A stretch of 64,000 nt of DNA from Pseudomonadales bacterium (lineage in GTDB: Bacteria; Pseudomonadota; Gammaproteobacteria; Pseudomonadales; Azotimanducaceae). The notes under the pieces were generated by a model. The model was given only the letters and a program-made list of their open reading frames with translations. It ran no database searches and was not told the DNA's origin. Shown here piece after piece: positions 4,070 to 48,707 of the stretch. The first letter of the stretch is position 1. Each line of letters opens with the position of its first letter. Location: the NCBI GenBank assembly GCA_965200175.1, contig OZ241345.1, positions 2,575,684-2,639,683 of the forward strand, given 5' to 3'. A program made the translations under genes and the position numbers.

Positions 4070-4246
4070 GATGTCTTTCCTCTTTCCAAGGGTTGTCAGG
4101 GGGTTCGCAGTCATCAGTGTCGCAGGCGTGGGGTGCCGCCAAGCACACGGGCTTGAGCGAGCGGGTGATTTGGCCTGGTTGAACGCCGACGCACGGGCGA
4201 CCTTGGGGACGCCTCCCAAATCGCTGCTGTTTCAAGGAGGGTCGGC

Positions 4247-4756: not shown

Positions 4757-5367
4757 ACTCTTCTGCGCGTTCTGCGGACGCCGCGCGCGGCGCGCGGGTC
4801 CGCGTCAAAGCGCTTGGGGGATTCGACGTTCTCCGGCGCGTCGGCGGCCGGACGGGCCAAGGGGTTGGATTGGGGTTGGGCAAACTGCCGCTCCAGCTTG
4901 CCGATGCGCGCGAGGGCGTCGTCGTTGCCCTGCTTATGCTCCGTGGCCTCGCAGACCCCTTCCGCGGCATCAAGCGCCAAACGGGCGTTTTCGCGCTCGC
5001 CCAAGGCCAAGTAGCACTCGCAGGCGTGAATGGACGGCCAAGGGTTGGTGGCGTCCAACATGGCGGTCATGCCGAACGCCACTAGGGCCTTGCGGTGTTG
5101 TTCGGACATTTGCTGGGTGGCCGCCAAGCCCATCCAGAAGCGGTGCTCCGCATGGTCGTTCTCCACGAGAAACAGGAACAGCTGCTCGGCCTGCTCGTAT
5201 TTGCGCTGCCGATAGGCGTTGTGGGCCAAACCATAGACCGCCTCCAGCTCGTCGCTCGTGTATCCGCGCACCGAACCCAAGGAGGCGCCTTCCAGAAGGC
5301 ACTTTTTCGTCAACTCCTCCACAGTTTGGAGTTGCTCATCGGTAATGGTTTCAAACGGATCGGACAT
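4753..5367 (-). CDS. T3SS class II translocator chaperone (TPR; SycD/LcrH/CesD family), copy 2
   Basis: TPR repeats (YGLAHNAYRQRKYEQAEQLFLFLVENDHAEHRFWMGLAATQQ...). ATG at 5367 with GAGG upstream; an alternative TTG lies at 5385. Confidence 0.8.
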   Translation of the reverse strand: MSDPFETITDEQLQTVEELTKKCLLEGASLGSVRGYTSDELEAVYGLAHNAYRQRKYEQAEQLFLFLVENDHAEHRFWMGLAATQQMSEQHRKALVAFGMTAMLDATNPWPSIHACECYLALGERENARLALDAAEGVCEATEHKQGNDDALARIGKLERQFAQPQSNPLARPAADAPENVESPKRFDADPRAARGVRRTRRRV

Positions 5368-5416
5368 CGGCCTGGACCTCGGCAAAAACGAATGACGCCC
5401 ACCCTCCGGCCACGGC

Positions 5417-6418
5417 CTAACGGGTGCTGCTGATCACTTTTTCGATCTTGTCCTTGTTGGCGTTGATGATGGAATTGGCCGCCTCAATGGCGTTGTTGGC
5501 TTGGGACAGCACGTTCTTGGTCTTGGACATGTGCAGGCTGTTGTCATTGCCCATCTGCTCGATGAAGTGCTTCAGGTTCTCCTCAAGGCGCTCCGCGCTG
5601 TCCTTGTGTATCTTGCCCCCCTCCATCCAGACCTTAGTGTACCCACCGCTGTCCCGGGTGACCAATGCGCCGGTCTCGGTTTCCCCCCGTCCCCACAACG
5701 GGATGCCGCGCGTGTGATTGTGCTCCCCCAAGTCCGTGCCATTTGCCCTCGCCGGGGATTGAGCGCCGAACTCCGCACTCGACCAATCCGGATGCGACGG
5801 CCCCCACTGCGGCCAAGCATCGTTCCAGGAATACCTGTGCCCGTCACCGTTCTTGTCAGATCCGTCAATCTGCTTGGGGTCGTCCCAGCCCGGGGAGTTC
5901 TGCCCGGTGGAAAGGCTGGGGACGTGCCATTTTTCCGGGTAAAGGAAGTTGCCGTCCTGGTCGAACTGCAGCCCGGACGCTTGGACCAGCGCCTGCGGCA
6001 CATGGTCCAGCTCCGTGGCGCCGACGGTGAAGTTAACGGTTTCAACCGGGATGGACTCCTCGACCACATTCGTGAGAAATTCGGCTTGAGCCTTCGTGAA
6101 GGTGATTTGATCGCCGGGGCCGTAATCGACCCCGCCGCCCTTGATCAAGTCCTTTTGTTGGGTGACGGTCTGCAGGATCTCTCGCGCCTGGCGCATGTTG
6201 TCGACGAACTTCTGCGCCTCGTTGAGCCGGTCGAAACCCACCTCGTTGATCACCCCGGCGCGGGCGATGTTGGCAAACGCCAAGGCATCCGACGGGTTCA
6301 TGGCCACCCCGCCGACGGTGATGGTGCCGTTGGCCCGGTCGGCGTCGGTCATCCTGATGTCCTGCGAGAGCAGGAGGTGGTTCGGTTGGGCGGCGGGCGC
6401 ATTGGATATGCTGTTCAT
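5417..6418 (-). CDS. Hydrophilic T3SS secreted protein (tip or hydrophilic translocator candidate)
   Basis: 333 aa with no hydrophobic segment. Helical ends (C-terminus NVLSQANNAIEAANSIINANKDKIEKVISS) flank a central Trp/Gly/Pro/Asp-rich domain. Lies between the hydrophobic translocator and a class II chaperone. Confidence 0.5.
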   Translation of the reverse strand: MNSISNAPAAQPNHLLLSQDIRMTDADRANGTITVGGVAMNPSDALAFANIARAGVINEVGFDRLNEAQKFVDNMRQAREILQTVTQQKDLIKGGGVDYGPGDQITFTKAQAEFLTNVVEESIPVETVNFTVGATELDHVPQALVQASGLQFDQDGNFLYPEKWHVPSLSTGQNSPGWDDPKQIDGSDKNGDGHRYSWNDAWPQWGPSHPDWSSAEFGAQSPARANGTDLGEHNHTRGIPLWGRGETETGALVTRDSGGYTKVWMEGGKIHKDSAERLEENLKHFIEQMGNDNSLHMSKTKNVLSQANNAIEAANSIINANKDKIEKVISSTR

Positions 6419-6447
6419 GGCTTTGTCCCGGCGGGCTCCTCTTCTCC

Positions 6448-7731
6448 CTAGGCTGGCGTTGCGATCTTTGAGGCGGTTTGGTTCGAGTTGGAAATGATGT
6501 CATTGACCGCCGCCCTGGACTCCTGCATCTGCTGCAGCAGCTTCCTGATCCGGTGCAGCTCCTCCATGGTGATCTCCTGAATGCGCGCCAAGTCGGCCCG
6601 CGCCTCATCAGCGTCCGCTTGGGCGTTTGACGCTTGGTAGTTGTACGCCCCGGTTGCGGCTTGGGTGCCGGCACCGCCGGCCTGGCCCGCAGCTTGGGCG
6701 AGTTGCGCCACTATCCTGAGCTTGTTGGCGGTCTGAACCACCTTTGCGGACGTTGAGGCCGCCTGGCCTGCCGTCGTGGTCGCACTGGTGCTGGCCGTCG
6801 AAGCCGTCGAGGCCGCCGCGGTGGCCGCCGTGGTGCTGGCCGTCGAGGAGGCCGTGGCCGCCGTGGTGCTGGCCGTGCTGGTGGCCGCCGCCGTCGCGGT
6901 TGATGCGGTGCTGGTCGCCGCCGCCGCCGTGGTCGCGCCGCCGCTGGTGGCCGCCGAGGAGGTCTGGGCCGCCGTGCCGGCCACGCTGGCGCCTGCCGAC
7001 GCCACCCCGCCCGACGCCGCCCCGAAGCTCATGACCATCGCGATGAGGTTGACGACGAGCAGGGCGACGGCCATGGAGATCTGGAAGATCATGGCGTCCT
7101 TGCCGCTGAGGTTCATCGCCTCCATGGCTTTTTCGGTGGCGCCGGTCTCCTGGGCGATCATCATGGCGGTCATCGCCGTCGCGGCCACGGCCAGCGGCGC
7201 CGCCGCCGCTCCGCCCGATGCCACGGCGACGACGCCGACCGCCAGCCAAGCCAGGCCGACGCCGATCCAGCCGAATATCTTGCCGATCTTGCTGCTGTTC
7301 TTGGCCTTCTCCCGCGCCTTCTCCATCTCCTCGATCTTATTCAGCGTCTCCTCGTGCTTCTCCTCGCGCTCCAGCTTCTGCGACTCAATGCGGGCCTCCG
7401 ACTCCTTGACGGTCTCAAGCCCCATCTTGGACTGCATCGCATACAGGAGCAGAACCAGCTGCTCCGCGTTCATCTTCTTGGGCAAAGCCAGCGCCGGCGG
7501 CGGGGTGGCGCCGTCGTCGCCTTCAACAGCGAGGTTCACGAAGGCGGAATCCGGCGCATCCACGCGCAGCCCGCTGCCGGCGGCCCGCTGGGCCGGCCGG
7601 TTTTGAGCGGCCTGGGAAACACCCTGCGGATCGGCAACCCCCGGATCACGCCTTACCGCATTCTCCGCCTCCGCCTCCGTTGCAGCGGGAGGGAGGGGCG
7701 CGTGGGCAACGCCGCTGACGCCATCATTCAT
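6448..7731 (-). CDS. T3SS hydrophobic translocator (YopB/EspD/SseC-like pore former)
   Basis: Two long hydrophobic segments (IFGWIGVGLAWLAVGVVAVASGG..., AMIFQISMAVALLVVNLIAMVMSF). N-terminal coiled coil, Ala/Ser/Thr-rich tract, C-terminal helix. ATG at 7731 overlaps the chaperone stop. Confidence 0.7.
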   Translation of the reverse strand: MNDGVSGVAHAPLPPAATEAEAENAVRRDPGVADPQGVSQAAQNRPAQRAAGSGLRVDAPDSAFVNLAVEGDDGATPPPALALPKKMNAEQLVLLLYAMQSKMGLETVKESEARIESQKLEREEKHEETLNKIEEMEKAREKAKNSSKIGKIFGWIGVGLAWLAVGVVAVASGGAAAAPLAVAATAMTAMMIAQETGATEKAMEAMNLSGKDAMIFQISMAVALLVVNLIAMVMSFGAASGGVASAGASVAGTAAQTSSAATSGGATTAAAATSTASTATAAATSTASTTAATASSTASTTAATAAASTASTASTSATTTAGQAASTSAKVVQTANKLRIVAQLAQAAGQAGGAGTQAATGAYNYQASNAQADADEARADLARIQEITMEELHRIRKLLQQMQESRAAVNDIISNSNQTASKIATPA

Positions 7732-8326
7732 CTCCGCCTCCTTGCTTGCTCGCCAGCAAGTCATCCAAGGACATTCTCAGCAGCTTGAGCCGCCCCGCCG
7801 CTTTGGCCTTAAGGTCCGGGACATCGCGCAGCGCTGCTTCCGCAGCCTCCGGAGCCCCGGCCAAAATCATGCACTCAGCCACGTCCAGCAGCAGGTCCGG
7901 GTCCGGCGCAGCCGCACACTCCGCGGCCACTGACAGCGCCGAGCCGGCGGCGAAGTGATCCCGCATCATCTGCCGACATCGGCCGAGCGCCAACCAATAG
8001 TCGAAGTTCAGGTGGTCATAGAGGCAGAGCAGTTCAAAGCCCACCACGGCCTGCTCATAGCGCCCGGCCACGTAGTCGTTTCGGGCAGCGCCGTAAAGGC
8101 CCTCAAGCCCCTCCCGGCCGACCTCGAAGACCTCCGCCAAGGTGGAGGCCTTGCCTTCGCCTTGATGGGTCGGGTCAGCATCGGTCCGCCCAGCGCTTGC
8201 GCCACCGGGCCAACCCGCAGCCACGGCGTCCGCCGGCCTTGCTGCCTCAAAATCCCCTTCTGATGCCAATGCCGTCCCCAATTTGCCGGTTGCGCAGCCT
8301 TCTGCCGTTCGCCATGCGCTTGCCAA
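7724..8326 (-). CDS. T3SS class II translocator chaperone (TPR; SycD/LcrH family), copy 1
   Basis: TPR core LEGLYGAARNDYVAGRYEQAVVGFELLCLYDHLNFDYWLALGRCRQ. The start (TTG at 8326) is uncertain. Confidence 0.7.
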   Translation of the reverse strand: MASAWRTAEGCATGKLGTALASEGDFEAARPADAVAAGWPGGASAGRTDADPTHQGEGKASTLAEVFEVGREGLEGLYGAARNDYVAGRYEQAVVGFELLCLYDHLNFDYWLALGRCRQMMRDHFAAGSALSVAAECAAAPDPDLLLDVAECMILAGAPEAAEAALRDVPDLKAKAAGRLKLLRMSLDDLLASKQGGGDE

Positions 8327-8350
8327 GCCGCAAGCAGGCCGAGCGGCGGC

Positions 8351-8668
8351 TCATATGCGCGTCATGCGCCTCGGCGGCCTGCGACGAGCCTTCGGCGCCT
8401 GCGCCTTCGCGGTGTTGGCCACCAACGCCGCCTCGTCCTCCGCCAGTTCGCGATGCAACTGCGCGAGATCCTCATCGATCAGCTTTTGCAGGTCCGGCGA
8501 GCAGGCGCCATTGCGCACCAGCGCCAGCACGTCATCGGCGCTGCCGAGGCCGACGTTCTCGATCATCGCACCCATCTTGGCCTGCACCGCACGGGCCTCC
8601 TCAACCGAAGCCTCCGCCTCAGCAATCAGCTTGTCGATGCGCTCGTCGCGGGTGTTGCCTTCACTCAT
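8351..8668 (-). CDS. Small helical protein, LcrG/PcrG-like (tentative)
   Basis: 105 aa. The central MIENVGLGSADDVLALV and the basic tail KARRRPPRRMTRI recall LcrG/PcrG as I remember them. First gene of the translocon operon, as lcrG is in Ysc systems. Confidence 0.35.
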   Translation of the reverse strand: MSEGNTRDERIDKLIAEAEASVEEARAVQAKMGAMIENVGLGSADDVLALVRNGACSPDLQKLIDEDLAQLHRELAEDEAALVANTAKAQAPKARRRPPRRMTRI

Positions 8669-9526: not shown

Positions 9527-11607
9527 TCCGACAACTCGCGCCAAGACAGCCGCCCGGCCAGCTGATGTGCGGACGGGCCGATGGCTTGGGTGCGGCGGTG
9601 GGAGCCGCCGGCCACAATCAACTGGCCTCCGTCGAAGCTCGGCAGCAAGCGGGGCGCCGTCAACGGACCGTTGAAGTCGCGCTCATCGAAGACCGTGCCG
9701 GGGGCGCGGTCCGCGGCAGCCACGGAAAGCAGGTCGCCCGCATTCACAAGTCCGTCGCCGTTCAGGTCGAGAACCGCGCGCCGGGGACTGCCGCCAGTGA
9801 CCCAGTTGATCGGCATGACGGCACCGACTGCGCCACCCGATCCCTTGGGGATCAGCGTGGTCACCAGCAGAAGGTCGCCCCAAGCCGTCAGGCGCGGGTG
9901 GAAGCGTTCGCCGGGATGCTGGGCGGCACCGGTTTCGCTGCCGGCGCGGGGGGCATCGAGATCGACGCGCCAGCCGCGCACAGCCGACCGGGAAGCGCCG
10001 GCGGGCCGGTAGTTCACCGGGCGATCGACAACGACCCGGTGCAGGTGCGCCGATCCGCTGACCGTAGCGTGGATGTTGCGCAGTCTCTGCGCAACCAGCG
10101 ATTCAGGGTTCGCCACGCCATCCGCCAATCCAACCGCATCCCAGATGCCGTACAGGGACTGAACGGCCACATCGCCCGGTTCGCCCGGACGCCAGGGAAA
10201 CCCGGTGGCGAACACAACCATGAAGCCGGGTTGGCTGGGATGCTTGAAAACCATGGGGCGAGCGGCGATGGGTTGCGGAACGCCCCGCCCGCTGCCATGC
10301 CGCGCCTGGAACAGGCGCGTTGCGCTCCAATTCGCCGGCTCCGAGCTCGACAAGTCGAACCGATGCAGGTTGCCGTCAACGTCCCCCGCATAGGCTCGGT
10401 CCACCGTGCCGTTCAGATCCAAGTCCACCAAAGCCGGTTCGCCCAGCCCGGAAGCGGCGCCAGCCGGCAGCTTGACGAAGTCGTCCGCCGCCCAGCCGTC
10501 AAGCCCGGCATCCACGAACAGCACGAACAGGACGGCGCGCCCGGCGGTGCTGCCCTCGCCGTTGCCGAGCACGGCCACCCACTTCCGCGCCCCGCCCGCA
10601 TCGCGCGCGTTGCTCATGGCCAGACGCGCCTGGCTGGTGGCAAAGCCCAGATCCTTGACCGGCGCTCCGTCTTCGTCCAAGTCGGCGACCGGCCGGCCGG
10701 CCGCATCGAGCGGCGGGACGTCGTCGGCATCGGTGAACTCCCAAAGCGGCATGCCCGCCGCCGCTTCGGCGCTGCCGGCGCTGGTTTCAGGATCCGTGAC
10801 GTCGAGCGCGAAGTAGCCCTTGCCGCGTTCGCCGAGACCGCCGATCAGCAGCGTCCGCCAAGCCTTGCGCCCAGTTGAGGACGCCAACCTCACAAAGGCG
10901 TCCTCCACCGTGGGCGAGGGGATTCGAAGGGAAGCCTGGCGTTGCGACCCCGAGGCCCGGCCATCAAGCCCCATGACCCGCCGCTGATCGCCGTCGATCA
11001 ACTGATTCGGCACATAGGCAAACGCCTCATGGCCATCATCCGCGTCAAAGGCGTGCAGCAATCCATTGTTCGAGCTGACGTAAACCATTGCCGGGCGGCG
11101 CGCCCAATCCGCCGCAAACTCGGAATAGGCTTCGCCGCGGGCGACGGGATAGGGCGCTTGTTCACGCCGCACGGCTTGGGGCGCTCCCACAACCACCGGC
11201 TCCGAGCCGACAATCGACCCCAGCCGCCGGACGTTGCCCTGGCCGCGCAGCCAGTTCGCCTCATCTTCACTCAACAGGGCTCTTTGGCTGGCGTTGAGGC
11301 GGCTGTGCTCGAATGGCAGGCCAGCCCCGGCGACTCGATCCAAGGTGATGATGACGCGCTGTTCCGGCGAAGCGCGCTCAAGCCGCTGCGCCGCCCGCCA
11401 CAGCACACGCAATCCAACCCCGTCGAAGCGGACGGCATGAAGGTCGCCGCCCGCCCCATTGAGATCGTGGAAAGCCCGATACTCAACGCTGCCTTCGCCG
11501 GCCCCGCCGAAGGCGACGGCGGCCAGCGCCTGGGCAGCGTCCGCCTCGGCCGGAATGGCAGCAGAGGCGAGACCGATCCCGACAACAAGGCCAAGCCAAG
11601 CGTTCAC
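9523..11607 (-). CDS. pilY1: Type IV pilus tip adhesin/assembly protein PilY1
   Basis: 694 aa with a signal peptide. PilY1/PilC-type propeller region. Lies downstream of pilX. Confidence 0.8.
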   Translation of the reverse strand: MNAWLGLVVGIGLASAAIPAEADAAQALAAVAFGGAGEGSVEYRAFHDLNGAGGDLHAVRFDGVGLRVLWRAAQRLERASPEQRVIITLDRVAGAGLPFEHSRLNASQRALLSEDEANWLRGQGNVRRLGSIVGSEPVVVGAPQAVRREQAPYPVARGEAYSEFAADWARRPAMVYVSSNNGLLHAFDADDGHEAFAYVPNQLIDGDQRRVMGLDGRASGSQRQASLRIPSPTVEDAFVRLASSTGRKAWRTLLIGGLGERGKGYFALDVTDPETSAGSAEAAAGMPLWEFTDADDVPPLDAAGRPVADLDEDGAPVKDLGFATSQARLAMSNARDAGGARKWVAVLGNGEGSTAGRAVLFVLFVDAGLDGWAADDFVKLPAGAASGLGEPALVDLDLNGTVDRAYAGDVDGNLHRFDLSSSEPANWSATRLFQARHGSGRGVPQPIAARPMVFKHPSQPGFMVVFATGFPWRPGEPGDVAVQSLYGIWDAVGLADGVANPESLVAQRLRNIHATVSGSAHLHRVVVDRPVNYRPAGASRSAVRGWRVDLDAPRAGSETGAAQHPGERFHPRLTAWGDLLLVTTLIPKGSGGAVGAVMPINWVTGGSPRRAVLDLNGDGLVNAGDLLSVAAADRAPGTVFDERDFNGPLTAPRLLPSFDGGQLIVAGGSHRRTQAIGPSAHQLAGRLSWRELSD

Positions 11608-39547: not shown

Positions 39548-40560
39548 CTACGAGTCGAGCAGCCAAGCGAGCAGGGCGGTCGGCACCGCAGCGACTTCAG
39601 GGTCGGATAGGTCTGATTCAGACCGAGTGGCCACCACGCCCTGCCAGCGGGACGCCTTCAGGGTCAGGGCCTCGCGCCGCCAGCCGCCATCGACGTACTT
39701 GGACTCAAAGGCGGCGCCGCCGAACTGCGGGCCGACGAAGTCGATCTCCTTGCGCGATGCGGTGCGGTGATGCAGCACCTGGTCGTGTCCCACCAGCGTC
39801 CCCGGCGCGTCGCGCTCGATCGCACGGAGCAGCGCCAAGCCAAGCTGCTGTTGCGAAAGCCGCGAGAAATCGAGGTGCGTCCTAGGCGCAACGCGCTCGG
39901 AATCCAGGGTCAGATTGGCGTAGATGGGATCCATGAAGTAGAGCTTCGGTTGTGCGCCAAGTTTCGGTCTCAGGTTGTCCTCACGGTAGCAGGGCCAAAC
40001 GACGAATGCCTCACGCAGTTCGTCAAGGCGCCGCTTCAGAGTCGCTTGAGCAACGCCGGTGTCGTTGGCAAGGGATGCGATGTTGAGGGGCGAACAGACA
40101 TTCGCGGACAGTCGCCGCAGCAGGTCCGTGCTTTGCGTTTGGGACCAGTCCGCGCGACGGAAGGCGTCGCCGTGGATGACATCCACCAGACTCCGGCGCA
40201 GCGCCGACGGTTCCGAACGGGTGGCGACGTGTTGCGCGACCGCAGCAGGGAACCCACCGCAGCCGAGATAAGTCTCCCATGCACGGATCAACAGATCCTG
40301 CCATGGCGCAAGCTCGGGCAGGACTTGCCTGAGTTCGCCGTGCGTGAGATCCGCAACGCGATAAGGCTTGAGCGCAGGATGTAGAGCCCCCCTGGAATGA
40401 GATCGGCAAGCACATCGGCTTGATATCGGAACGGTGCGCGTTCCATTTCCCGCAGGTCCGGATCCCTTGCGGTCCAGCCTTCGGGGTCGCGCCACCAACG
40501 GTTGATCGCCGCCAGCGTCTGCTGTGCCTCTCCGCGCTTCATGGCTGTGACACTGCCCAA
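39548..40560 (-). pseudogene. Decayed COG1373-type ATPase gene (AAA plus DUF4143-like); P-loop region deleted and frameshifted
   Basis: The N-terminal piece (INRWWRDPEGW...LIPGGLYILR) stops where GPRRVGK would normally follow. The C-terminal piece (LKPYRVADLTHGEL...KLYFMDPIY...) continues in another frame. The combined length is about 70 codons too short. Confidence 0.6.
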
Positions 40561-40837
40561 AAGAGGAACACTTTACGCCAAGTGTGGTGGAAAATGCATA
40601 CCTAATCCGCCAGATGTTGAGGATTTTGCATGATTTGGAAGTAGGAGGCGCTACGGATGCGTCGGGCCGCAAACGGAAGGATCGAACCCCACCCATCAAA
40701 GGGGCCAATCCCGAGCCTTGGACTGCGTCGCGGTTGCCCATCGACAGCTTGATGGCCAGCGTGGCTTGGACCCGCGAGCGATCCCAAGCATGGTAGATTA
40801 GGCCGCATCGTCAACGGCGTTCGCAACGGGAGGCGCA

Positions 40838-41469: not shown

Positions 41470-42393
41470 ATGACCAACCGCATCCTGCTCACCGGCGCCA
41501 ACGGGCACCTCGGGCGATTGGTGATCCGTGCCGTGGCCGACGATGCCGACGCCCTCCCGGTTCGGGCCGTCGTCCGCTCCGAGAACGCCGCCCGAAGCCT
41601 CGACGACCTGCCGTCGCCGGAACGGCGCGAGGTCCGCATCATCGACTACCGGGACCGCACCGGCTTGGAGGCGGCGGCCCAAGGATGCGACGCCGCCATC
41701 CACCTCGTGGGCATCCTTAAAGCAACCCGGGCCAACCGCTACGAGAGTGCCCACGAGCAGCCGGCCGAGGCGCTCTCGGCGGCCTGCTCGGCGGCTGGGG
41801 TGGGGCGCATCGTCCACACCAGCATCCACGGCGCCGATCCCGCCTCCGGCAACGGCTGCCTGGCGTCGCGCGGACGCACCGACGACATTCTCCTGGCGTC
41901 GCCCGTGCCAGCGGTGATCCTACGCGTGCCGATGGTGCTGGGGCCAAGCGACATCGCCGCCGAAGCGTTGCGGCGCCAAGCCACGTCGGGTCGCGCGCGG
42001 CTGGTGCGTGGCGGCGCGGCCCTGCAGCAGCCCATCGCCGCCGCCGACGTGGTGGCGGCGCTGCTGGCCGCATGCCGTCCCGGCGCTCCCGCCGATGTCG
42101 TGTTGGAGCTGGCCGGCCCGGAGTCCCTGACCCACCGGGCGCTGGTCGAGCGCACCGCCCGCGTTCTCGGTCGCGAGGTCGCCTTCGCCAGCACCCCGAT
42201 GTTCGCCGCGCACGCCTTCGCTTGGCTCGCCGAGACGCTGTCCGCTGATCCGCCGCTCACCCGCGACATGCTCGAAGTGCTGGAGCAGGACGACGCGGTC
42301 GATCCCGAACCGGCAAGGCGGGCGCTTGGCATCGAACTCACTCCGCTGGACCGCGCTCTGCGCACCGCCTTCAACACGGAAGCCGCCCCATGA
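41470..42393 (+). CDS. NAD(P)-binding atypical SDR / NmrA-like protein
   Basis: N-terminal ILLTGANGHLG Rossmann motif. Confidence 0.75.
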   Translation: MTNRILLTGANGHLGRLVIRAVADDADALPVRAVVRSENAARSLDDLPSPERREVRIIDYRDRTGLEAAAQGCDAAIHLVGILKATRANRYESAHEQPAEALSAACSAAGVGRIVHTSIHGADPASGNGCLASRGRTDDILLASPVPAVILRVPMVLGPSDIAAEALRRQATSGRARLVRGGAALQQPIAAADVVAALLAACRPGAPADVVLELAGPESLTHRALVERTARVLGREVAFASTPMFAAHAFAWLAETLSADPPLTRDMLEVLEQDDAVDPEPARRALGIELTPLDRALRTAFNTEAAP

Positions 42394-43349
42394 CCGCCAC
42401 GACTCCCAACGACCGGCCCGCACCGCCCATTTGGCAGCGGGCGCTGCCTTGGCTGATCACGCTGGCCTGCTTCGCATGGCTCTACACCCGCATCGAGGGC
42501 GCCGCCGCCCGCCAAGGCCTGACGGCGGCGAGCTACCTGCTTGAGGTCTTCGCCAGCGTCTCCTGGGGAAGCTGGCTGGCGCTGATGATCCCCTACTCCG
42601 CCTTCTTCTTCCTGATCGACTCCACCGTGGTGTGGCGGGTGGTGTCCTGGTTCAACGCCCGGGTGCCCTGGACCGGCATCCTGCCCATTCGCGCCAGCGC
42701 CTACATCATCTCCATCGTCAACGAGCAGGTGGGCAAGGGCGCGATGGCGCTCTACCTGAACCGCCGGGACGGCGTTCCCGGCTGGGAGGTGGGCTCATCA
42801 ATGCTCTTCATCATGTTCTGCGAGCTGCTCTACCTCACCTTCTGGGCCAACGTCGGCTACGCGATGGCCGCCGACACCCTGCCCGCCCAGTTTGCCCTGG
42901 TGCCTTGGATCGGGGCCGGCGTGCTTGCGCTCTTCCTGCTCTGGGTGGCCTTCTTCCGGGGCCTCATCCCGGTGGGCGCAGCGCTGCGCGAACGGGCCAT
43001 CCTCAAGGCGTTCCGCGAAGCCTCGCCGCTGCGCTACCTCATCATCGGCGCCATCCGCTCCCCGGCCCTGCTCGGCGCGGTGGTGGTTTACACCTTGGCG
43101 CTGCGCCTGTTCGGCGTGGAAGCCTCGTTCCTGGACATGCTGGGCGTGCTGCCGGTGATCTTCTTCGCCGCGGCCATCCCCACCCCCATGCGCGCCGCCG
43201 CCATCACCATCTGGGTGGTGCTGTTCCCCGACAACGAAGCCCAGCTCTCGGCCTTCGGCCTGGTGATGCACAACTTCTTCATCTTCTTCAACGCGGCCAT
43301 CGGCCTGCTGTTCCTGCGGCGGGCGAATCGGGAGTTGGGGTTGGCGTAA
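42390..43349 (+). CDS. Flippase-like (UPF0104 / lysyl-PG synthase TM-region-like) membrane protein
   Basis: 319 aa with about 8 TM segments. The start overlaps the upstream stop (ATGA). Confidence 0.65.
   Translation: MTATTPNDRPAPPIWQRALPWLITLACFAWLYTRIEGAAARQGLTAASYLLEVFASVSWGSWLALMIPYSAFFFLIDSTVVWRVVSWFNARVPWTGILPIRASAYIISIVNEQVGKGAMALYLNRRDGVPGWEVGSSMLFIMFCELLYLTFWANVGYAMAADTLPAQFALVPWIGAGVLALFLLWVAFFRGLIPVGAALRERAILKAFREASPLRYLIIGAIRSPALLGAVVVYTLALRLFGVEASFLDMLGVLPVIFFAAAIPTPMRAAAITIWVVLFPDNEAQLSAFGLVMHNFFIFFNAAIGLLFLRRANRELGLA
43278..43349 (+). repeat. Direct repeat, left copy (the functional 3' end of the flippase-like gene)
   Basis: TTCATCTTCTTCAACGCGGCCATCGGCCTGCTGTTCCTGCGGCGGGCGAATCGGGAGTTGGGGTTGGCGTAA. 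By eye it differs from the copy at 46129-46200 only at a minority of positions. Confidence 0.85.
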
Positions 43350-43491: not shown

Positions 43492-43821
43492 ATGACACTT
43501 ACGCTTGTGATCTCAAGCACGCATATTGGACGAACGATCACGACGGACTTCAGAAAGTTGAAATCCCGTTTGAGCGAGTACATCCGAATGGTGCGCGAAG
43601 GAACCAAATCGAAGGTCACATTTAATGGCGAGACCGGGGCGGAGAATCGCCCTCCTACGCTTCTAGCAGACCATCACATTGATCACGAGTTGAAGCTTCA
43701 GACGCAAGCTGGGAAAGTGCGTCTTGGTGCATGGAATCAACCGGAGGTGTACACCATCACCTCCGTGCAACTACCAGAAGGCGCCGCACCAACTCTGCTC
43801 AGTGAATCCAGGGGCGAGTGA
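43492..43821 (+). CDS. Phd/YefM/VapB-type antitoxin-like protein with no cognate toxin gene
   Basis: ITTDFRKLKSRLSEYIRMVREG...KVTFNGE resembles a Phd/YefM N-terminus. The C-terminal QAGKVRLG...LPEGAAPTLLSESRGE resembles the VapC-binding tail. The downstream space is taken by the convergent ImmA gene. Confidence 0.45.
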   Translation: MTLTLVISSTHIGRTITTDFRKLKSRLSEYIRMVREGTKSKVTFNGETGAENRPPTLLADHHIDHELKLQTQAGKVRLGAWNQPEVYTITSVQLPEGAAPTLLSESRGE

Positions 43822-44589
43822 CTAGGCTTCTAGGGCTATTCGCCGTTGTGCCTCTATTTGCTGCTGGTCGACATCGTCGATCAAGGCCAAGTTCCTCAAG
43901 TGCCGAAGGGTGGCCTCAAAGCCGGTATGTAATCGGCGCGCCACACGGTCCACTCCTTCTTCGGTTGCCAGAGAGCAATCCAACTCCACAACGCTTTGTT
44001 GAATAAGCGGTTCGGGCATAAGAAGCATCGCCGCAAAGGCATTCGCGCGCCTCTCGATACCGGCTGGCGCCCAAGGTCCACTGGCGATGGCCAAACGGCG
44101 GCCAACTTCACGGTCGTAAAGGACATGGCAGAGTTCATGCGCCAGGGTGAATCGACGCCCTTGCGAAGTCCCATTGAATAGATTGCCGCGATTCCACGCA
44201 ATTCCCGGTCTGTGCCCGGGTCCCGCAATTGCAACGCCCCTAACACTGGCGTCAGTCAACCACACTTCTTTGACTTCTATGCCCAATCGTTCAAGGAGGC
44301 CATCCACATCAACATACCTGCCGGTCAGGAAACGACCATCGAGTTGGTCATGAAGACGGTCAGCAAGATCGTATCCCTGTGACCAAGGAGCCAATGTCGC
44401 GATCATCGGCTCCGGGCGATCGTCTATCGTAGCCAACTCTGCGCTTGAACGATCCCCAGTCAGGCCGACAATAAGATTACAGAGCGTCACGATATCCTCG
44501 CTGGTCACCCGGGGAGCCAAGGAGCCAAACATCAGGGCCGCATGGCAGGAACCCTCAACGACCAGACTCGGATCGCCTTCATGGGCCAA
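43822..44589 (-). CDS. ImmA/IrrE family zinc metallopeptidase (COG2856-like)
   Basis: HEXXH motif FTLAHELCHVLYD plus the downstream ERRANAFAAMLLMP. The start is only a TTG, and the N-terminus may be truncated. Confidence 0.75.
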   Translation of the reverse strand: MAHEGDPSLVVEGSCHAALMFGSLAPRVTSEDIVTLCNLIVGLTGDRSSAELATIDDRPEPMIATLAPWSQGYDLADRLHDQLDGRFLTGRYVDVDGLLERLGIEVKEVWLTDASVRGVAIAGPGHRPGIAWNRGNLFNGTSQGRRFTLAHELCHVLYDREVGRRLAIASGPWAPAGIERRANAFAAMLLMPEPLIQQSVVELDCSLATEEGVDRVARRLHTGFEATLRHLRNLALIDDVDQQQIEAQRRIALEA

Positions 44590-44691
44590 CAGCTCTTCCT
44601 GCTACTCCATCGACAAGTTGCTTGAGATGCACTTGCGAACTCGCCGCCACCCGCCTCGGACGGTTTGGACATCAACGCCCAGCCGCGCCAG

Positions 44692-45387
44692 TCACATGTG
44701 CAGTTCGTGATTTCGCGGCCTGCGCAATCGGCCAATCGCCTGCGAGAGTTTGCGTATTCGACCGGAATCTGGCGCAACGGAAGTAAGATACTCAGAAGCC
44801 CCTTGAAGTATCTGATAGAGGGGCTCTGCAACAACCCGCGGACTTAGGGTTTCTGAGCTTGGTTGAGAAATATCGAAAACAACATGGTCCGGCGCACCGG
44901 CCACTTGCCCAGGACCCCACGACACTTCAATGGCATCACGAAGCCGACGAAACACAATATCCGGAAACACACCACCCTCGCGGGCAGCGCATAGAGCGTG
45001 GCGCGACCACCAATGCTGCCACGCGGCTTCTCGGCCATCCTCCTCTGACTCATCAATCGCGAACGGCGGAACAGGGTCGTTACGAAGTGCGCGCCAACCC
45101 GTGTCCTCTAGGCTGCGGCAAGGCAGGCGCTCCTCATGCAATAGGGGATCCCAATTCTGGGTAAACCACTCCAACAAGGGAAGCAGATACCAGTAAACGT
45201 GATCAACCCGCTCCGATTGCTCAAGGTGTGCGCAGAGGTTGACGCCACGAACCCAGATCTGAAAGCCGCCCCAAGAAATGGACTGCTCTGAGTCCGCGGC
45301 CTCACCACCATCGGGATCATCCAGAAACGCTATCCTTACTGCGAAACGGCTAGTGTCCCCAGCAAGACGTTCCCAACGAATCGCCAT
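44692..45387 (-). CDS. Hypothetical Trp-rich protein, unknown family
   Basis: ATG at 45387, 231 aa (MAIRWERLAGDTSRF...WYLLPLLEWFTQNWDPLL...). Starts 11 nt after the upstream small ORF. Confidence 0.55.
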   Translation of the reverse strand: MAIRWERLAGDTSRFAVRIAFLDDPDGGEAADSEQSISWGGFQIWVRGVNLCAHLEQSERVDHVYWYLLPLLEWFTQNWDPLLHEERLPCRSLEDTGWRALRNDPVPPFAIDESEEDGREAAWQHWWSRHALCAAREGGVFPDIVFRRLRDAIEVSWGPGQVAGAPDHVVFDISQPSSETLSPRVVAEPLYQILQGASEYLTSVAPDSGRIRKLSQAIGRLRRPRNHELHM

Positions 45388-45397
45388 CGAAAAACCC

Positions 45398-45694
45398 TCA
45401 GTGCCAATAGCGTCTGACGTTACGCCGCGACACAGTTCGGTCGGCCTTCCACTGCTGGACAACTGAAGTGGGAACCTCTTTCCAAGCCACCGGATAGCCG
45501 TGCCAAAGGTCACCCTCGGATCGCTGCGCGCAATACGCCCGCCCATCGTGGGTCGCGTATCGCTTGTTGTCGTGCAAAGCGCTCCCCCGCAGGAGTTCGT
45601 CGGCGAATGGCCGCACCTCCGGCGGGCAAAGACTGCCTCGCCGACCACGTTGCCACGGCTCGGAGTGCTTGGGGTTGCTCCTGTACTCCATCAT
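45398..45694 (-). CDS. Small basic protein with a WHGYP motif, unknown family
   Basis: 98 aa: MMEYRSNPKHSEPWQRGRRGSLCP...GRAYCAQRSEGDLWHGYPVAWKEVP... Confidence 0.5.
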   Translation of the reverse strand: MMEYRSNPKHSEPWQRGRRGSLCPPEVRPFADELLRGSALHDNKRYATHDGRAYCAQRSEGDLWHGYPVAWKEVPTSVVQQWKADRTVSRRNVRRYWH

Positions 45695-46128
45695 TGCACC
45701 GTCAAGGTGAGCGGGAATAGTCAGTAATGCTCTCACGACAGTCAAGAGACTGCGCACCCGCTTTGCGGGAGCGGTTGACGAGCTGATCGAATCACCGTCA
45801 AAGCCGTCGCCAACGATAGGACTTACCGCCTACCGCCGAAGTCTCTGCACCGATTGCGGGCCACGCCATGGGGAGCGCTGCGAGCCGGTTGCTATGCCGG
45901 GGTCGCCACCAAGAAGCCCATCGGAGGCGGTGTGCGGCGATACTGGAATACCTGCTAGCCACGCGGCGGATGCTACGCTGTGGTTCAACTTCATTCGCTA
46001 ACACTGCCTGAGCCTGCACGGCTTAGCCTCAACGCCAAGGTGAGGTGGAGTAGATGGTCTCCAAGCCGAGGTGTCCGCCCTCAAAGCCACACAGATGAGA
46101 TAATGACCCTTGGCGATTGCGCAACTGT

Positions 46129-46200
46129 TTCATATTCTTCGATCACGCCATCGGCCTGCCGTTCCTGCGGCGGGCCGATCGGGAGTTGGGGTTGGCTTGA
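46129..46200 (+). repeat. Direct repeat, right copy (orphan diverged copy of the flippase-like gene 3' end)
   Basis: TTCATATTCTTCGATCACGCCATCGGCCTGCCGTTCCTGCGGCGGGCCGATCGGGAGTTGGGGTTGGCTTGA. Confidence 0.85.
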
Positions 46201-46209
46201 GGTCGGGAC

Positions 46210-47910
46210 ATGAAGAGCACCGCCTACTACGACCAGAACGCTGATGCGCTAGTTGATCAGTATGGCGCGCTGAATGCCGATGCCGTGCATCAGGCTTGGG
46301 CTCGCAAACATCTTCCGAAGGAACCGGGCTTCGCCTGTGACATTGGTGCAGGGACCGGGCGCGACGCCAACTGGTTGGCGCAGCAGGGTTGGGAAGTGGT
46401 CGCCGTCGAACCCAGCGCGATGCGCGACAAAGCTGCCTCAACGACCCACCCAAGGGTGACTTGGCTTAATGACGCCTTGCCCGGCTTGACTGCCCTCCGG
46501 GCGCTCGGTCGAAGATTCGACCTGATTCTGCTAAGCGCAGTTTGGATGCATGTCGCGCCCAAGGAGCGGGAAAGAGCGTTCCGCATCCTGTCCGAACTGC
46601 TCAATCCATCGGGTCTGTTGGTGATCACCCTGCGCAAGGGCGGGGACGAACGTGAAAGCGAGGATCGCGGCTTTCATCCCACTTCCGCTGACGAATTGAC
46701 TGGCTACGCGAATCGGCGGGCCGTCGCGTACAAGGGCCGTAGCGAAGCTGACGATCTTGTGCGCGGCCATGTGCGTTGGCAAACGCTGGTGTTTGAAATG
46801 CCGGATGACGGCACCGGCAGCCTGCCCTTGCTGCGCCACGTCATCGTCAACGACAACAAGTCGTCCACCTACAAACTGGGCTTGTTGCGGGTGCTGGTGC
46901 GAATAGCGGAAAGCGCTCCGGGCATCGTCGTTGCGCGCACCGATGACTATGTGGACATTCCCTTCGGCGTGGTCGGCCTGTACTGGATCAATCAGTACCG
47001 GCGCTTGGTGGCTCGGAACGTTCCCCAACTGCCAGGCCACAGGACGGGCTATGGTTGGGCCAAGGGCGCGTTTTATCAGCTAATGAAGGAAATCTCCCCT
47101 TCGGACCTGCGGCTCGGCACACGCTTCAACGCCGATCGGGGGGAAGTGGTAACCCGCGCCATTGCCGACGCATGCCACAACATCAAGGCAATGCCGGCCA
47201 AGCACATCACTTACCCCGGATCGCCCGACCAACCGGTCTTCGAGTGCGACTTGAAACCGGTTCGCGGACCAAGGAAGCACGTTGTCCTGTCGAAGGAGTT
47301 TCTGACCCAGTTCGGCCGGTTTCGGATACGGGGCCCGCTTTGGCAGACGCTCGGGCAATACGCCTGCTGGCTGGATCCGGTAATCGTTAGGGAATGGTCT
47401 CAGATGATGACGGGTTGGGGTGTATCGGACGTGGGAAACCAGGAACGCTTGGCCCTGGACTGGCAGGAAGGCACCCGCGACACCAAGGTGGCTATCGAAC
47501 GCGCAGAGGCATTGCGGCATGAAGGATTCGACCTAACCTGCGTTTGGTCAGCCTCCCGGATCAGGTCGTCCTTCCAAATCGATCACTGCTTTCCTTGGGC
47601 AAGGTGGTGCAACAATGACTTGTGGAATCTGCTCCCGACCAAGGTGGACATCAACCGCCGAAAGCTCGACAAGCTGCCTTCCTCGTTAGCCATGTCCGAC
47701 GCTCGCACGCGCATCATCGATTGGTGGAGCGAGGCTTGGGAACGCTCGGCGCAGTCCGAGCGGTTCTTCATGGAGGCGGGATACTCCCTGCCCGGTCTTT
47801 CCAGCGACCGTCCATCATTGGATGAAATCTACCAAGCGACATTGCACCAACGGGCACGGCTCAAGCAGGATCAACAGCTTGTGGAGTGGTCCCTATCGGG
47901 ACTTGGATAG
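46210..47910 (+). CDS. Fusion protein: class I SAM-dependent methyltransferase, winged-helix-like middle region, C-terminal HNH endonuclease
   Basis: Motif I CDIGAGTGRDANWLAQQGWEVVAVEP with post-I/II blocks (DLILLSAVWMH, LLNPSGLLVI). Middle STYKLGLLRVLVRIAE. C-terminal QIDHCFPWARWCNNDLWNLLPTKVDINRRKLDKLP (HNH/HNN). Confidence 0.7.
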   Translation: MKSTAYYDQNADALVDQYGALNADAVHQAWARKHLPKEPGFACDIGAGTGRDANWLAQQGWEVVAVEPSAMRDKAASTTHPRVTWLNDALPGLTALRALGRRFDLILLSAVWMHVAPKERERAFRILSELLNPSGLLVITLRKGGDERESEDRGFHPTSADELTGYANRRAVAYKGRSEADDLVRGHVRWQTLVFEMPDDGTGSLPLLRHVIVNDNKSSTYKLGLLRVLVRIAESAPGIVVARTDDYVDIPFGVVGLYWINQYRRLVARNVPQLPGHRTGYGWAKGAFYQLMKEISPSDLRLGTRFNADRGEVVTRAIADACHNIKAMPAKHITYPGSPDQPVFECDLKPVRGPRKHVVLSKEFLTQFGRFRIRGPLWQTLGQYACWLDPVIVREWSQMMTGWGVSDVGNQERLALDWQEGTRDTKVAIERAEALRHEGFDLTCVWSASRIRSSFQIDHCFPWARWCNNDLWNLLPTKVDINRRKLDKLPSSLAMSDARTRIIDWWSEAWERSAQSERFFMEAGYSLPGLSSDRPSLDEIYQATLHQRARLKQDQQLVEWSLSGLG

Positions 47911-47942
47911 CCGCTTGCCCGCGCAACCTTGGCTCACTCCCC

Positions 47943-48707
47943 CTACCAACCCCGATGCCCCACCGGCGGCGGATCCTCCGGAGGTCCCGCGAAGCACTGG
48001 GCAATGGCCATCCAGGACCTGGCGGCGTCGCCGACGACGGTGAGGCTGGTCTCGGCGATGTTGCGCCCTTGGGTGACCACATGGGCGAACTCGACGGCGG
48101 AGCCGCGCACGCAATCGGCGTCGGAGGGCTCGTTCCACTCCCACACCGCGCCAGAGGGTGATTCGAGCCGCACGTAGGGTGCCGGCGACGGGGCCTCGAG
48201 GCCGCGGTTAACGAACGTCCAGCCGAAGGTGCGCACGCCGATGTGGCACACGTTGCGGATGCGGTCGCTGTTGCGGCGCTGCGCGCGCAGCAGGTCGTAG
48301 ATATCCTGGCCGTGCGCCCAGGTCTCCATTTGCCGTGCGGTGGCCATCATGGCGATGCCCATGTCCGGCCCGAACCAAGGGGCGCGCAGCGCTGGGTCCG
48401 CTGCATCAAGGGCGTCGCAGAGTTGGGTAAAGTATGAACGCCAGCGATCCAGCAGCGGTCGGCCTTCCAGCGGCTCGGGGTTGGCCGGAATCCCGGCACC
48501 CAGGCCGTCCCGCCATTCCCGGAAGCCGTCCGGATCGATCACCGAGTGCACCGCCCAGCGGTCAGCGTCGTGCAGGTGCTGCACCACCCAGTTGACCGTG
48601 CGGCCCTTGAAGGGCGTCTTAAGCGACCACTGATCGTCGCTTAAGGTGTCTAGGAACGAGAAAAGCTCCGCGCCTTCCTCGCGCAGGTCGTTAACTTGTT
48701 GGTTCAT
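47943..48707 (-). CDS. DinB/maleylpyruvate-isomerase-N-terminal-like metal-binding protein (TIGR03084-like)
   Basis: 254 aa with an N-terminal four-helix DinB-like pattern (EGAELFSFLDTLSDDQWSLKTPFKGRTVNWVVQHLH). Confidence 0.55.
   Translation of the reverse strand: MNQQVNDLREEGAELFSFLDTLSDDQWSLKTPFKGRTVNWVVQHLHDADRWAVHSVIDPDGFREWRDGLGAGIPANPEPLEGRPLLDRWRSYFTQLCDALDAADPALRAPWFGPDMGIAMMATARQMETWAHGQDIYDLLRAQRRNSDRIRNVCHIGVRTFGWTFVNRGLEAPSPAPYVRLESPSGAVWEWNEPSDADCVRGSAVEFAHVVTQGRNIAETSLTVVGDAARSWMAIAQCFAGPPEDPPPVGHRGW

Follow-up and report, generated by a model that had tools for sequence, protein, structure and literature searches.

The locus at 43822-45694 of the window (the whole stretch of 64,000 nucleotides from contig OZ241345.1 of a Pseudomonadales bacterium that was analysed, to which all coordinates refer) is probably one copy of a widespread two-gene conflict module, an RNase toxin paired with an immunity-M78 fusion, whose second gene is broken here. 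ImmA/IrrE-peptidase 'antitoxins' (RosmerTA, NetFlax D25 hub) are common in defence islands. In the present family the architecture is readable, with an RNase warhead common to CdiA, PT-HINT and Menshen effectors, an immunity-like N-domain and an attached, conserved and active-looking protease. It leads to a testable hypothesis, namely neutralisation of the toxin by the immunity domain, made conditional by the protease.

45398..45694 (minus strand): small toxin gene, 98 aa, pI 9.9, predicted BECR-Tox2-like RNase-type domain; intact, stop codon TGA
44695..45387 (minus strand): codons 1-231 of the large gene, immunity-like N-domain, acidic (pI 5.2), Trp-rich; the '231-aa protein' of an earlier sequence-only reading
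44692..44694 (minus strand): first in-frame stop, TGA, at codon 232 of the large gene; a Trp at least 90% conserved in the family, TGG in the closest relatives
44602..44604 (minus strand): second in-frame stop, TAG, at codon 262 of the large gene; CAG or CAA (Gln) in the closest relatives
43822..44601 (minus strand): codons 263-521 and stop of the large gene, helical middle region and M78 (ImmA/IrrE) metallopeptidase domain (PF06114)
44125-44139 (minus strand): HELCH motif of the peptidase segment
44029-44055 (minus strand): ERRANAFAA motif of the peptidase segment
43492..43821 (plus strand): orphan Phd/YefM-like ORF, 109 aa, convergent with the large gene, whose stop codon it adjoins; cassette cargo
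43261..43345 (plus strand): left copy of a ~87-bp direct repeat, the 3' end of a flippase-like gene (42390-43349); 85% identity with 46111-46196 (self-blastn)
46111..46196 (plus strand): right copy of the direct repeat, at the opposite cassette edge, consisting of a duplicated gene-end fragment (self-blastn)

The AT-richer cassette with three co-oriented ORFs described by the sequence-only reading was recovered, with GC of 0.54-0.63 across 43500-48000 vs. 0.65-0.73 in the flanks and all three minus-strand ORFs present (45398-45694, 44692-45387 and 43822-44589). The spacer between gene 1 and ORF2, which had been given as 11 nt, was counted as 10 nt (GGGTTTTTCG), and the sole start of the supposed 'ImmA gene' (43822-44589) was a TTG at 44589.

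ORF2 (231 aa) and ORF3 (255 aa) lie in the same frame, with only the TGA (44692-44694) and the TAG (44602-44604) between them. The search for homologues of the large protein returned 1,328 sequences, in which the junction is read through as one protein of ~515-525 aa; the best 120 of the 1,328 were 494-568 aa long, all with PF06114. In the syntenic relatives, L011 at 89% aa identity and L012 at 79%, the gene was unbroken and read TGG at codon 232 and CAG or CAA at 262; the closest relative carried TGG and CAG at the two stop positions, and W232 was at least 90% conserved in the family. Judged from frame and alignment, ORF2 and ORF3 belong to one gene of ~521 aa that TGG>TGA (codon 232) and CAG>TAG (codon 262) have interrupted. 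Since the frame is shared, the homologues are continuous and the stops stand at Trp and Gln codons, the true unit is two genes, the second interrupted, and not the three genes counted earlier. In an annotation, the ORFs of 231 and 255 aa are best entered as fragments of a single pseudogene rather than as two genes; ORF2 had also been called on its own (P0001) by the gene caller of the protein database. Recoding of TGA was ruled out because the small gene also uses TGA as its stop codon, and the large gene has TAG as its second stop.

Against the closest relative, dN/dS was 0.21-0.31 over the large-gene segments (0.21 for the peptidase segment). Substitutions were polarised, and the window branch showed a non-significant excess (post-stop 42 v 23, N-domain 6 v 8; Fisher p = 0.15), which leaves three options: a very recent break, a fragment that is still in use, or stops that come from assembly errors. 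A single copy of each module gene was found in the genome, and thus no second antitoxin in trans. Natural clustering of truncations at the domain boundary was dropped as evidence, as the first search admitted lengths of 0.55-1.75x of 231 aa and so picks out such fragments.

In the phylum sample, the small gene lay directly upstream of the large gene, at -3 to +34 nt, in all full-length loci. Across 80 loci picked by similarity to the large protein, it was directly upstream in 73, from Acidobacteriota, Pseudomonadota, Actinomycetota, Spirochaetota, Cyanobacteriota and other phyla, and the module as a whole was present in at least 10 phyla. Small-protein homologues thus almost always adjoin a peptidase gene, the co-occurrence with COG2856 genes that the sequence-only reading had proposed checking, and its idea of a toxin-antitoxin or defence-type module around such a peptidase is supported by the conserved two-gene synteny and the predicted identity of the toxin domain. 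Distant paralogues (<30% identity) retained an ORF with KH...(W/Y)HG(Y/F)P overlapping the large-gene start, and a search with the small-protein profile recovered the same genomes. The toxin was partial or absent with the large gene intact in 20/80 loci. The near-universal intactness of the large gene in these 80 loci was rejected as evidence, because sampling ranked by similarity to that gene biases it. The large protein had no match among plasmids (tblastn, E <= 1e-20) or phages (tblastn, E <= 1e-10) in the collections searched.

The small protein was confirmed as a basic 98-aa protein (pI 9.9) carrying WHGYP, with K9-H10, R45 and H65 (within WHGYP) as its key residues. K9 and H10 were invariant in 36 homologous sequences, and H65 was at least 90% conserved. 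The AF2 model (pLDDT 80) comprised one helix (H28-36) and a four-stranded sheet (E39-41, E44-49, E52-58, E63-69) behind a disordered N-terminal extension; residues 1-27 were almost devoid of secondary structure, residues 11-20 had pLDDT <50, and H65, in strand E63-69, is the second His at the start of beta4. The AlphaFold and Foldseek check suggested for this protein gave a BECR-like model whose top match was chains E-H of 5T87 (prob 1.0, TM 0.52/0.65), which are CdiA-CT (PMC9111745); weak RelE/ParE/HigB matches ranked below it. The PADLOC NsnC C-terminus matched the small protein at E 8e-8, with intermediate sequences reaching 3e-27. A homologous toxin domain follows PT-HINT in P0450 (32.4 bits vs. 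a cut-off of 27.7), and another is the tip of a CdiA-like TPS/Fil_haemagg protein of 2,418 aa (E 2.4e-11), whose last 584 aa gave no domain in a Pfam search, TPS and Fil_haemagg being seen only in the full 2,418 aa. No match to the small protein was found in Pfam, NCBIfam or PHROGs, no HTH was detected in it, and a profile search of PDB sequences gave no meaningful match. Its gene had a dN/dS of 0.10-0.19.

BECR-Tox2-like toxins are defined by an unstructured N-terminal extension with a KH motif and a second His near the N-terminus of beta4; the member assayed, from Vibrio neptunius only, was toxic in E. coli and neutralised by its own immunity protein (bioRxiv 10.64898/2026.08.28.747851). Fold, KH extension, beta4 His and occurrence in NsnC and polymorphic toxins were all found for the small protein, which, as predicted from fold and family, is a BECR-Tox2-like RNase-type toxin domain, placed in that group as a whole, spanning BECR-Tox2 proper and PB-BECR1. 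By its predicted BECR fold and its Foldseek, PADLOC, PT-HINT and CdiA-like matches, this agrees with the earlier suggestion that an upstream ORF is the toxic part. By the same model and sequence comparisons, the protein is not a wholly new effector family, since it fits the group described in that preprint, and the proposal of such a family for both upstream ORFs fails also for ORF2, which is the N-domain of the peptidase protein.

ORF2 was Trp-rich as described (4.8% Trp) and matched no family in Pfam, NCBIfam, PHROG or PADLOC, in keeping with the lack of a recognisable motif. The N-domain is acidic (pI 5.2 vs. 9.9 for the toxin) and was predicted by AF2 to consist of two beta-beta-beta-beta-alpha repeats. 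The ORFs directly after CdiA-like toxin tips (P0459, P0460) matched by profile the N-domain of a 470-aa M78 protein (L136) at E 1.1e-6, and this M78 protein is itself paired with a small KH...HGYP ORF. By hhalign, the N-domains of the paralogues (A5) aligned with the immunity ORFs (A4; 92.7%, E 4e-7) and with the window-family N-domain (A3; 94.7%, E 6e-8), and the direct alignment of A3 with A4 was weak (8.9%, E 0.004). The domain is termed immunity-like: its profile-level homology to CdiI-type immunity proteins is transitive, via the paralogues, and two sequences of a single genome went into the immunity profile. Nothing meaningful was matched when PDB sequences were searched with profiles of the N-domain, of the paralogue N-domains or of the immunity ORFs, and Foldseek with the full-length model did not recover a CdiI structure for the N-domain. 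PUR/Whirly-like (PURA/MRP) matches were weak (prob 0.82 and 0.15, rmsd 7-10 Å) and so were not relied on. Orphan genes with the N-domain only recur without toxin or peptidase, and the domain is, by the dN/dS of 0.13 in one orphan pair with a common truncation, also kept alone under purifying selection. Rather than a second effector, as had been proposed, ORF2 appears to be the immunity-like N-terminal domain of the peptidase protein, cut off by two nonsense codons.

The assignment of the third ORF to the ImmA/IrrE peptidases (COG2856) was upheld by HELCH, ERRANAFAA and a Peptidase_M78 match (PF06114, E 3e-12, 46.8-48.6 bits vs. a cut-off of 22). PADLOC CapP was the best match of the peptidase part (2e-16), followed by RmrA (up to 2e-10), in both cases in the peptidase region only. 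Foldseek with the full-length model confidently recovered only the IrrE-like part (3dti/3dte/8slm, prob 1.0, E 9e-4 to 1e-2, ~170 aligned columns), and BFVD matches were phage IrrE-like proteins only. H417, E418, H421 and E445 were invariant in 31 homologues; these residues and the IrrE/PprI fold were counted as support for a peptidase that is predicted to be functional in the family. No HTH family reached threshold when P0187, P0188 and the G002 homologue were searched against Pfam, even with a limit of E <= 5, and an XRE-like HTH spanning the TGA likewise found no support there.

Among known systems, RosmerTA (RmrT/RmrA) and the NetFlax 'D25 ImmA' hub (PMC10440598) share two genes, the toxin gene first, and a partner with an ImmA/IrrE M78 domain; toxins of these systems are hypervariable, and the modules lie in defence or mobile islands. 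Conserved synteny and the RmrA HMM place a toxin gene next to an M78-peptidase antitoxin gene here too, with PADLOC RmrA models matching the M78 domain of the large protein. Unlike RosmerTA, the large protein is without a detectable XRE-type HTH and has a ~230-aa CdiI-type-related domain and a helical middle region instead, RmrA models cover the peptidase part only (from about model position 154 onwards), and the toxin is predicted to be a BECR-Tox2-like RNase domain. As no HTH was detectable in the peptidase protein, the classical RmrA architecture is not present, and of the RosmerTA-type system proposed earlier the toxin gene adjoining an M78-peptidase gene stands, whereas the HTH fusion does not (none found at E <= 5).

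With BECR-Tox2-like toxins (bioRxiv 10.64898/2026.08.28.747851) the small protein shares the unstructured extension with an invariant KH and the second His at the beta4 start (H65 here), and with the C-terminal BECR effector domains of Menshen NsnC (PMC12065111) similarity at HMM level. It differs from both in that it stands alone as a 98-aa protein and has an M78-peptidase fusion as its partner; the terms ImmA, M78 and peptidase have 0 occurrences in the text of the preprint. CdiA-CT/CdiI of Cupriavidus taiwanensis (PDB 5T87) supplies the best structural match of the small protein, although profile searches of PDB sequences found no sequence-level match to the 5T87 chains. A CdiA-like exoprotein from a genome of the same class has a homologous domain as its end, the immunity ORF behind it matches the N-domain family by profile, and the gene order is again toxin before immunity; in contrast to the CDI pair, the toxin here is not exported and the immunity moiety is fused to a protease. 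CapP/CapH, ImmA/ImmR and IrrE/DdrO have an M78 peptidase with HEXXH...E, CapP being the best PADLOC match and IrrE/PprI the best PDB folds, and suggest the logic of a signal-activated protease. Here, however, there is no adjacent HTH repressor (no CapH-type HTH gene), CBASS operon or ICE/prophage regulatory context at the locus, and the partner is a predicted toxin domain, not a repressor.

Because of the profile link to immunity proteins and the orphan N-domain genes, we read the large protein as a fusion of an immunity domain with an M78 protease, which would act as a conditional antitoxin, RosmerTA-like but lacking an HTH. Gene 1 would encode a free-standing BECR-Tox2-like RNase toxin, and gene 2, normally ~521 aa, a CdiI-type-like immunity N-domain, a helical linker or middle region and an ImmA/IrrE (M78) zinc peptidase with intact motifs. 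The immunity domain would bind and silence the toxin, and the peptidase would make this protection conditional, such that a stress or phage cue leads to cleavage of the linker, the immunity domain or a partner; the freed RNase would then arrest the cell, with a RosmerTA-like abortive-infection or addiction logic. In the window, gene 2 appears to have been hit recently by two nonsense substitutions directly past the immunity domain. The probable products are the toxin and a stand-alone 231-aa immunity fragment, with the peptidase part presumably untranslated or weakly re-initiated, and on that account the module looks 'disarmed' here rather than lethal.

A further step, which we regard as possible rather than probable, is that the large protein is a 'protease-gated immunity protein', in which a CdiI-type domain captured from contact-dependent-inhibition pairs was fused to an ImmA/IrrE sensor protease, and a cue would cause destruction or release of the immunity domain in cis, unleashing the RNase. 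If so, the nonsense truncation and the orphan N-domain genes that keep recurring would represent adaptive 'disarming' or anti-addiction, HTH-less Rosmer-like systems would gain a concrete mechanism, and the family would link interbacterial toxins with intracellular defence modules in evolution.

It is unlikely that the gene is intact in the organism, with both stops as base-calling or assembly errors in a normal two-gene module. Both stop changes are transitions, purifying selection is seen in all segments against the closest relative (dN/dS 0.21-0.31), the catalytic motifs are all intact, and at the loci examined it is less usual for an intact toxin to stand beside a broken protector; but the two substitutions are independent and lie 90 nt apart, the genome is finished as a single contig, indels are the commoner kind of assembly error, and comparable natural decay occurs at other loci (internal deletions, toxin nonsense or frameshift mutations). 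A functional split, in this lineage, into toxin, free immunity protein and a peptidase fragment started from TTG 44589, behind the Shine-Dalgarno-like string GGAAGAG, is judged quite improbable. No other locus examined has a conserved split at the same point with both halves kept, the peptidase part is lost at orphan N-domain loci, and two stops rather than one suggest decay over design; the TTG with its purine-rich string does exist, yet this start-like context is inherited coding sequence, and the low dN/dS of the peptidase segment (0.21) and the viability of free N-domain genes elsewhere are what remains in favour of a split.

The small basic protein could instead be a non-toxin, a nucleic-acid-binding regulator or peptidase substrate like ImmR, CapH or DdrO, in line with its size and charge, its position beside an ImmA/IrrE-type peptidase gene and the rank of CapP among PADLOC matches. 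This is very improbable given the undetected HTH, the BECR fold with a conserved KH/His constellation (AF2 model), the use of the same domain as C-terminal warhead of PT-HINT, CdiA-like and NsnC proteins, and its frequent decay while the partner stays intact. The original model of three genes, with both upstream proteins as effectors under a stand-alone ImmA-type peptidase, is hardly credible any longer: three ORFs can be drawn and ORF2 was called separately by the database's gene caller (P0001), but homologue architecture contradicts it (one reading frame in >1,300 homologues), the stops stand in for Trp and Gln codons, and the N-domain groups with immunity proteins, not toxins.

The broken two-gene module thus remains the preferred reading, and its surroundings are those of an inserted cassette. 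Neither a sigma-70 promoter consensus nor a terminator consensus was found at the locus, where a lone terminator-like site falls below chance expectation. The neighbouring ORFs are the Phd-like ORF, an MTase-HNH fusion and the flippase-like gene, with no HTH or CBASS genes among them (Pfam, PADLOC). A Pfam search with the Phd/YefM-like ORF (43492..43821) gave no match, and its homologue in L012 had a weak PF02604 match. The direct repeat copies (43261..43345 and 46111..46196) flank the cassette on both sides, and the gene-end fragment of the right repeat was also present in the syntenic locus L011.

Three minus-strand ORFs were confirmed in the window, in a setting of lower G+C content (0.54-0.63 across 43500-48000 vs. 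0.65-0.73 on both flanks). The module and a Phd/YefM-like orphan ORF make up a ~2.8-kb lower-GC cassette, within which no integrase was found and which adjoins an MTase-HNH fusion.

Features of the cassette (window coordinates)
45398-45694, minus: small ORF, 98 aa
44692-45387, minus: ORF2, 231 aa
43822-44589, minus: ORF3, 255 aa, with TTG as sole start
43492-43821, plus: orphan 109-aa ORF, its stop abutting the stop of the peptidase gene
43261-43345 and 46111-46196: direct repeat (87 bp, 85% identity) of the 3' end of the flippase-like gene, bracketing the cassette

The sequence-only description of the three products was borne out: the small protein, which contains WHGYP, is basic (pI 9.9), ORF2 is Trp-rich (4.8% Trp; product acidic, pI 5.2), and ORF3 is of ImmA/IrrE type, with HELCH, ERRANAFAA and a Peptidase_M78 match over the curated cut-off (E 3e-12). 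The first two ORFs lie 10 nt apart, not 11. ORF2 and ORF3 had been taken for separate genes, which did not hold, as they share one frame and are separated only by TGA (44692-44694) and TAG (44602-44604). Homologues of ORF2 extend over the junction, reading '...MWLAGLGVD...LVVEGSCHAALMFG...'. A search found 1,328 relatives of the read-through protein (P0187); the best 120 were all 494-568 aa and all had PF06114, the few named ones being 'ImmA/IrrE family metallo-endopeptidase'. The large gene was intact in two metagenomic contigs of the same chromosomal neighbourhood (89% and 79% amino-acid identity), which share with the window a flippase-like gene, an NmrA-like gene, dnaG, UGSC, DUF2461 and the MTase-HNH fusion. 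In the codon alignment, codon 232 was changed from TGG to TGA and codon 262 from CAG to TAG, and Trp occupied codon 232 in at least 90% of 31 aligned family members. In this genome TGA works as a normal stop, since the small gene itself ends in TGA. What had been read as a '231-aa Trp-rich protein' and an 'ImmA peptidase' is thus, by the shared frame, the read-through homologues, the intact syntenic copies and the Trp and Gln codons, a single gene of ~521 aa in pieces.

When 401 genomes were sampled evenly across the phylum, the small gene lay immediately upstream of every full-length large gene, and a small-protein profile search recovered the same genomes as the large-gene search. The window's genome holds one copy of each; a same-genus genome holds only one full-length homologue (36% identity, 529-aa open frame), overlapped on its upstream side by a 135-aa ORF carrying the small-protein motifs. 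Across 80 loci from GTDB species representatives, the small gene was recognisable upstream on the same strand in 73, mostly with a gap of -3 to +34 nt. These loci span Acidobacteriota, Gamma- and Alphaproteobacteria, Actinomycetota, Spirochaetia, Binatia, Cyanobacteriota, Chloroflexota, Planctomycetota, Myxococcota, Desulfobacterota and Hydrogenedentota. In distant paralogues the large protein is ~450-520 aa long and recognisable mainly via the peptidase half, and an upstream ORF (KH...G.CP...Y.A...(W/Y)HG(Y/F)P) is retained, overlapping the large-gene start. Both genes evolve as coding sequence (dN/dS 0.10-0.19, small gene; 0.17-0.28, large gene), and the conserved unit is two genes. Plasmid and phage collections gave no match to the large protein. 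At one locus (L059, Pseudomonadales MAG OY762070.1, ~2190-4045) the small toxin ORF runs without a stop, in frame, into the large ORF, and the predicted product is a single-chain toxin-immunity-protease fusion.

Among 36 homologues of the small protein, Y4, K9, H10, G17, G20, C23 and R45 were invariant, and C55 and W64-H65-G-Y-P near-invariant. [quoted passage not shown] The model's top PDB match was 5T87 chains E-H (prob 1.0, TM 0.52/0.65), the CdiA-CT toxin of Cupriavidus taiwanensis (PMC9111745), with weak RelE/ParE/HigB matches ranked after it. PADLOC NsnC models matched the small protein across their C-terminal ~80 residues (E 8e-8, and up to 3e-27 for intermediate family members); in the Menshen defence system, NsnC C-termini are interchangeable effector domains, mostly of BECR fold (PMC12065111). 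The 'BECR-Tox2-like' group is defined by a canonical BECR core, an unstructured N-terminal extension with a KH motif and a second His starting beta4, and one member was toxic in E. coli and neutralised by its own immunity protein (bioRxiv 10.64898/2026.08.28.747851). All three structural features were found in the window's small protein, which we assign, on sequence and predicted structure, to this group as a toxin domain. An exhaustive profile search gave 304 cluster representatives, most of them free-standing proteins of 90-140 aa; in one (P0450) the domain directly follows a PT-HINT pretoxin domain, and in a same-class genome it forms the final ~80 residues of a CdiA-like exoprotein. The terms ImmA, M78 and peptidase are absent from the text of the preprint (bioRxiv 10.64898/2026.08.28.747851), and pairing with an ImmA/IrrE-peptidase protein is a further genomic context for BECR-Tox2-like toxins.

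The large protein was modelled by AlphaFold2 (pLDDT 78) in three parts.

Parts of the large protein (AlphaFold2)
Residues 1-~225: N-domain, two beta-beta-beta-beta-alpha units
Residues 224-237 and 272-281: low-confidence linker inside the helical middle region
C-terminal: IrrE-like peptidase

Foldseek matched the model to IrrE/PprI (prob 1.0), no HTH families were detected in the protein, and PADLOC RmrA and CapP models aligned solely with the peptidase part. The metal-binding residues are invariant throughout the family, which suggests that proteolysis belongs to the protein's function.

The genome with the CdiA-like exoprotein also provided candidate relatives of the N-domain.

Toxin-tip and immunity ORFs in this genome
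L135 (G404:C107) 1349-8605, minus: CdiA-like exoprotein, 2,418 aa, TPS and Fil_haemagg, ending in the BECR-Tox2-like domain
L135 834-1352, minus: 172-aa immunity ORF (P0459) overlapping the end of the toxin tip
L131 1004-2271, minus: second, orphan toxin-tip/immunity pair

P0459 is 37% identical to P0460 (158 aa), the ORF after the second toxin tip, and the motifs W..L..W.....L..E..P and RH.L....G..(I/F)P were seen by eye in both and in the N-domain. A P0459 and P0460 profile run over 400 genomes of the class gave a single match (E 1.1e-6), at residues ~46-146 of a 470-aa HEXXH protein that itself follows a KH...FHGYP ORF. In profile-profile comparisons, in which the immunity side comprised few sequences (P0459, P0460), paralogue N-domains matched the immunity ORFs at 92.7% (E 4e-7) and the window-family N-domain at 94.7% (E 6e-8); the direct comparison of the window-family N-domain with the immunity ORFs reached only 8.9% (E 0.004), though in unchanged register. 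As the strong links run only via the paralogues, the homology is transitive, and that of the N-domain to immunity proteins of this toxin family is probable, not proven. Genes encoding only the N-domain (226-242 aa) turned up repeatedly in other genomes; these loci have lost the peptidase part by deletion, and their toxin is missing or truncated. Among the genes nearby are large SNF2/DEAD-type helicases, SIR2, a BrnT toxin, and AAA_15/AAA_21 or DUF4143 ATPases. Two such loci with an identical deletion junction gave a dN/dS of 0.13. These genes behave as would be expected of orphan immunity genes, which lends the immunity reading independent support.

Such genes lie at L037 3001-3702, L039 3001-3708 and L036 4001-4708, in a recurrent neighbourhood of very large helicases (SNF2/DEAD/ResIII with NOV_C or SACS-like regions), an SLFN/AlbA_2-HATPase gene, DUF1156 and a BrnT toxin. 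DUF4143/AAA_14 genes adjoin orphan loci L034 and L040; a DUF4143 ORF in the window (39548-40741, minus) apparently lacks the usual N-terminal AAA_14 ATPase part.

Toxins in the 80 loci were seemingly full-length in 60, partial or frameshifted in 13 (two interrupted at the KH motif) and undetectable in 7, and the large gene was open in 78; the ranking of these loci by similarity to the large protein leaves the frequency of toxin decay as the one informative figure. In the unbiased phylum sample, of ten loci, both genes were intact in about half and several had a broken toxin, with the partner broken or not; the window was the sole locus where the partner was interrupted beside an intact toxin. 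The break sits just after the immunity-like domain, and if this domain alone neutralises the toxin, a viable cell would be expected despite the broken partner. The peptidase segment had a dN/dS of 0.21 vs. the nearest relative. With substitutions polarised by two outgroups, the window branch carried 42 changes after the first stop and the relative's branch 23, and in the N-domain the two branches carried 6 and 8; this excess was not significant (p = 0.15). The low dN/dS and the non-significant excess suggest a recent break, a peptidase fragment that remains in use, or erroneous stops; this last reading, by which both substitutions would stem from assembly and the large gene would really be intact, agrees with these figures and is improbable. 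At L073 (Vicinamibacterales MAG, just upstream of 2501) and L075 (Caldilineaceae MAG, just upstream of 1565), toxin ORFs are broken exactly at the catalytic KH motif with the large gene intact, which looks like natural disarming through toxin loss.

In function, the described systems nearest to this one are RosmerTA and the NetFlax D25 ImmA hub, which share with the window module a toxin encoded first and an ImmA-protease antitoxin (PMC10440598). The suggested RosmerTA-type module was partly borne out. In the large protein, the N-terminal HTH that defines RmrA is replaced by the immunity-like domain, and the toxin falls in a BECR group described only recently. New here are the diagnosis of ORF2/ORF3 as one putative pseudogene, the placing of the toxin in the BECR-Tox2-like group, its connection with CdiA and PT-HINT toxin tips, the reading of the N-domain as a probable immunity domain, and the orphan-immunity pattern.

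No partner toxin for the 109-aa ORF was visible in the window. Its homologue in the syntenic contig L012 had a weak PhdYeFM_antitox match, and two diverged copies flank the toxin/peptidase module there (7139-7454 and 9712-10029). The duplicated flippase-like gene-end fragment is also present in the other syntenic contig, L011. In the same-genus genome, the intact module has beside it a large ORF (L002 1-924, minus) that runs off the end of the locus and begins MATTNHERVGKAMELLRSGLAPF...; it may resemble HEPN-ATPase defence proteins.
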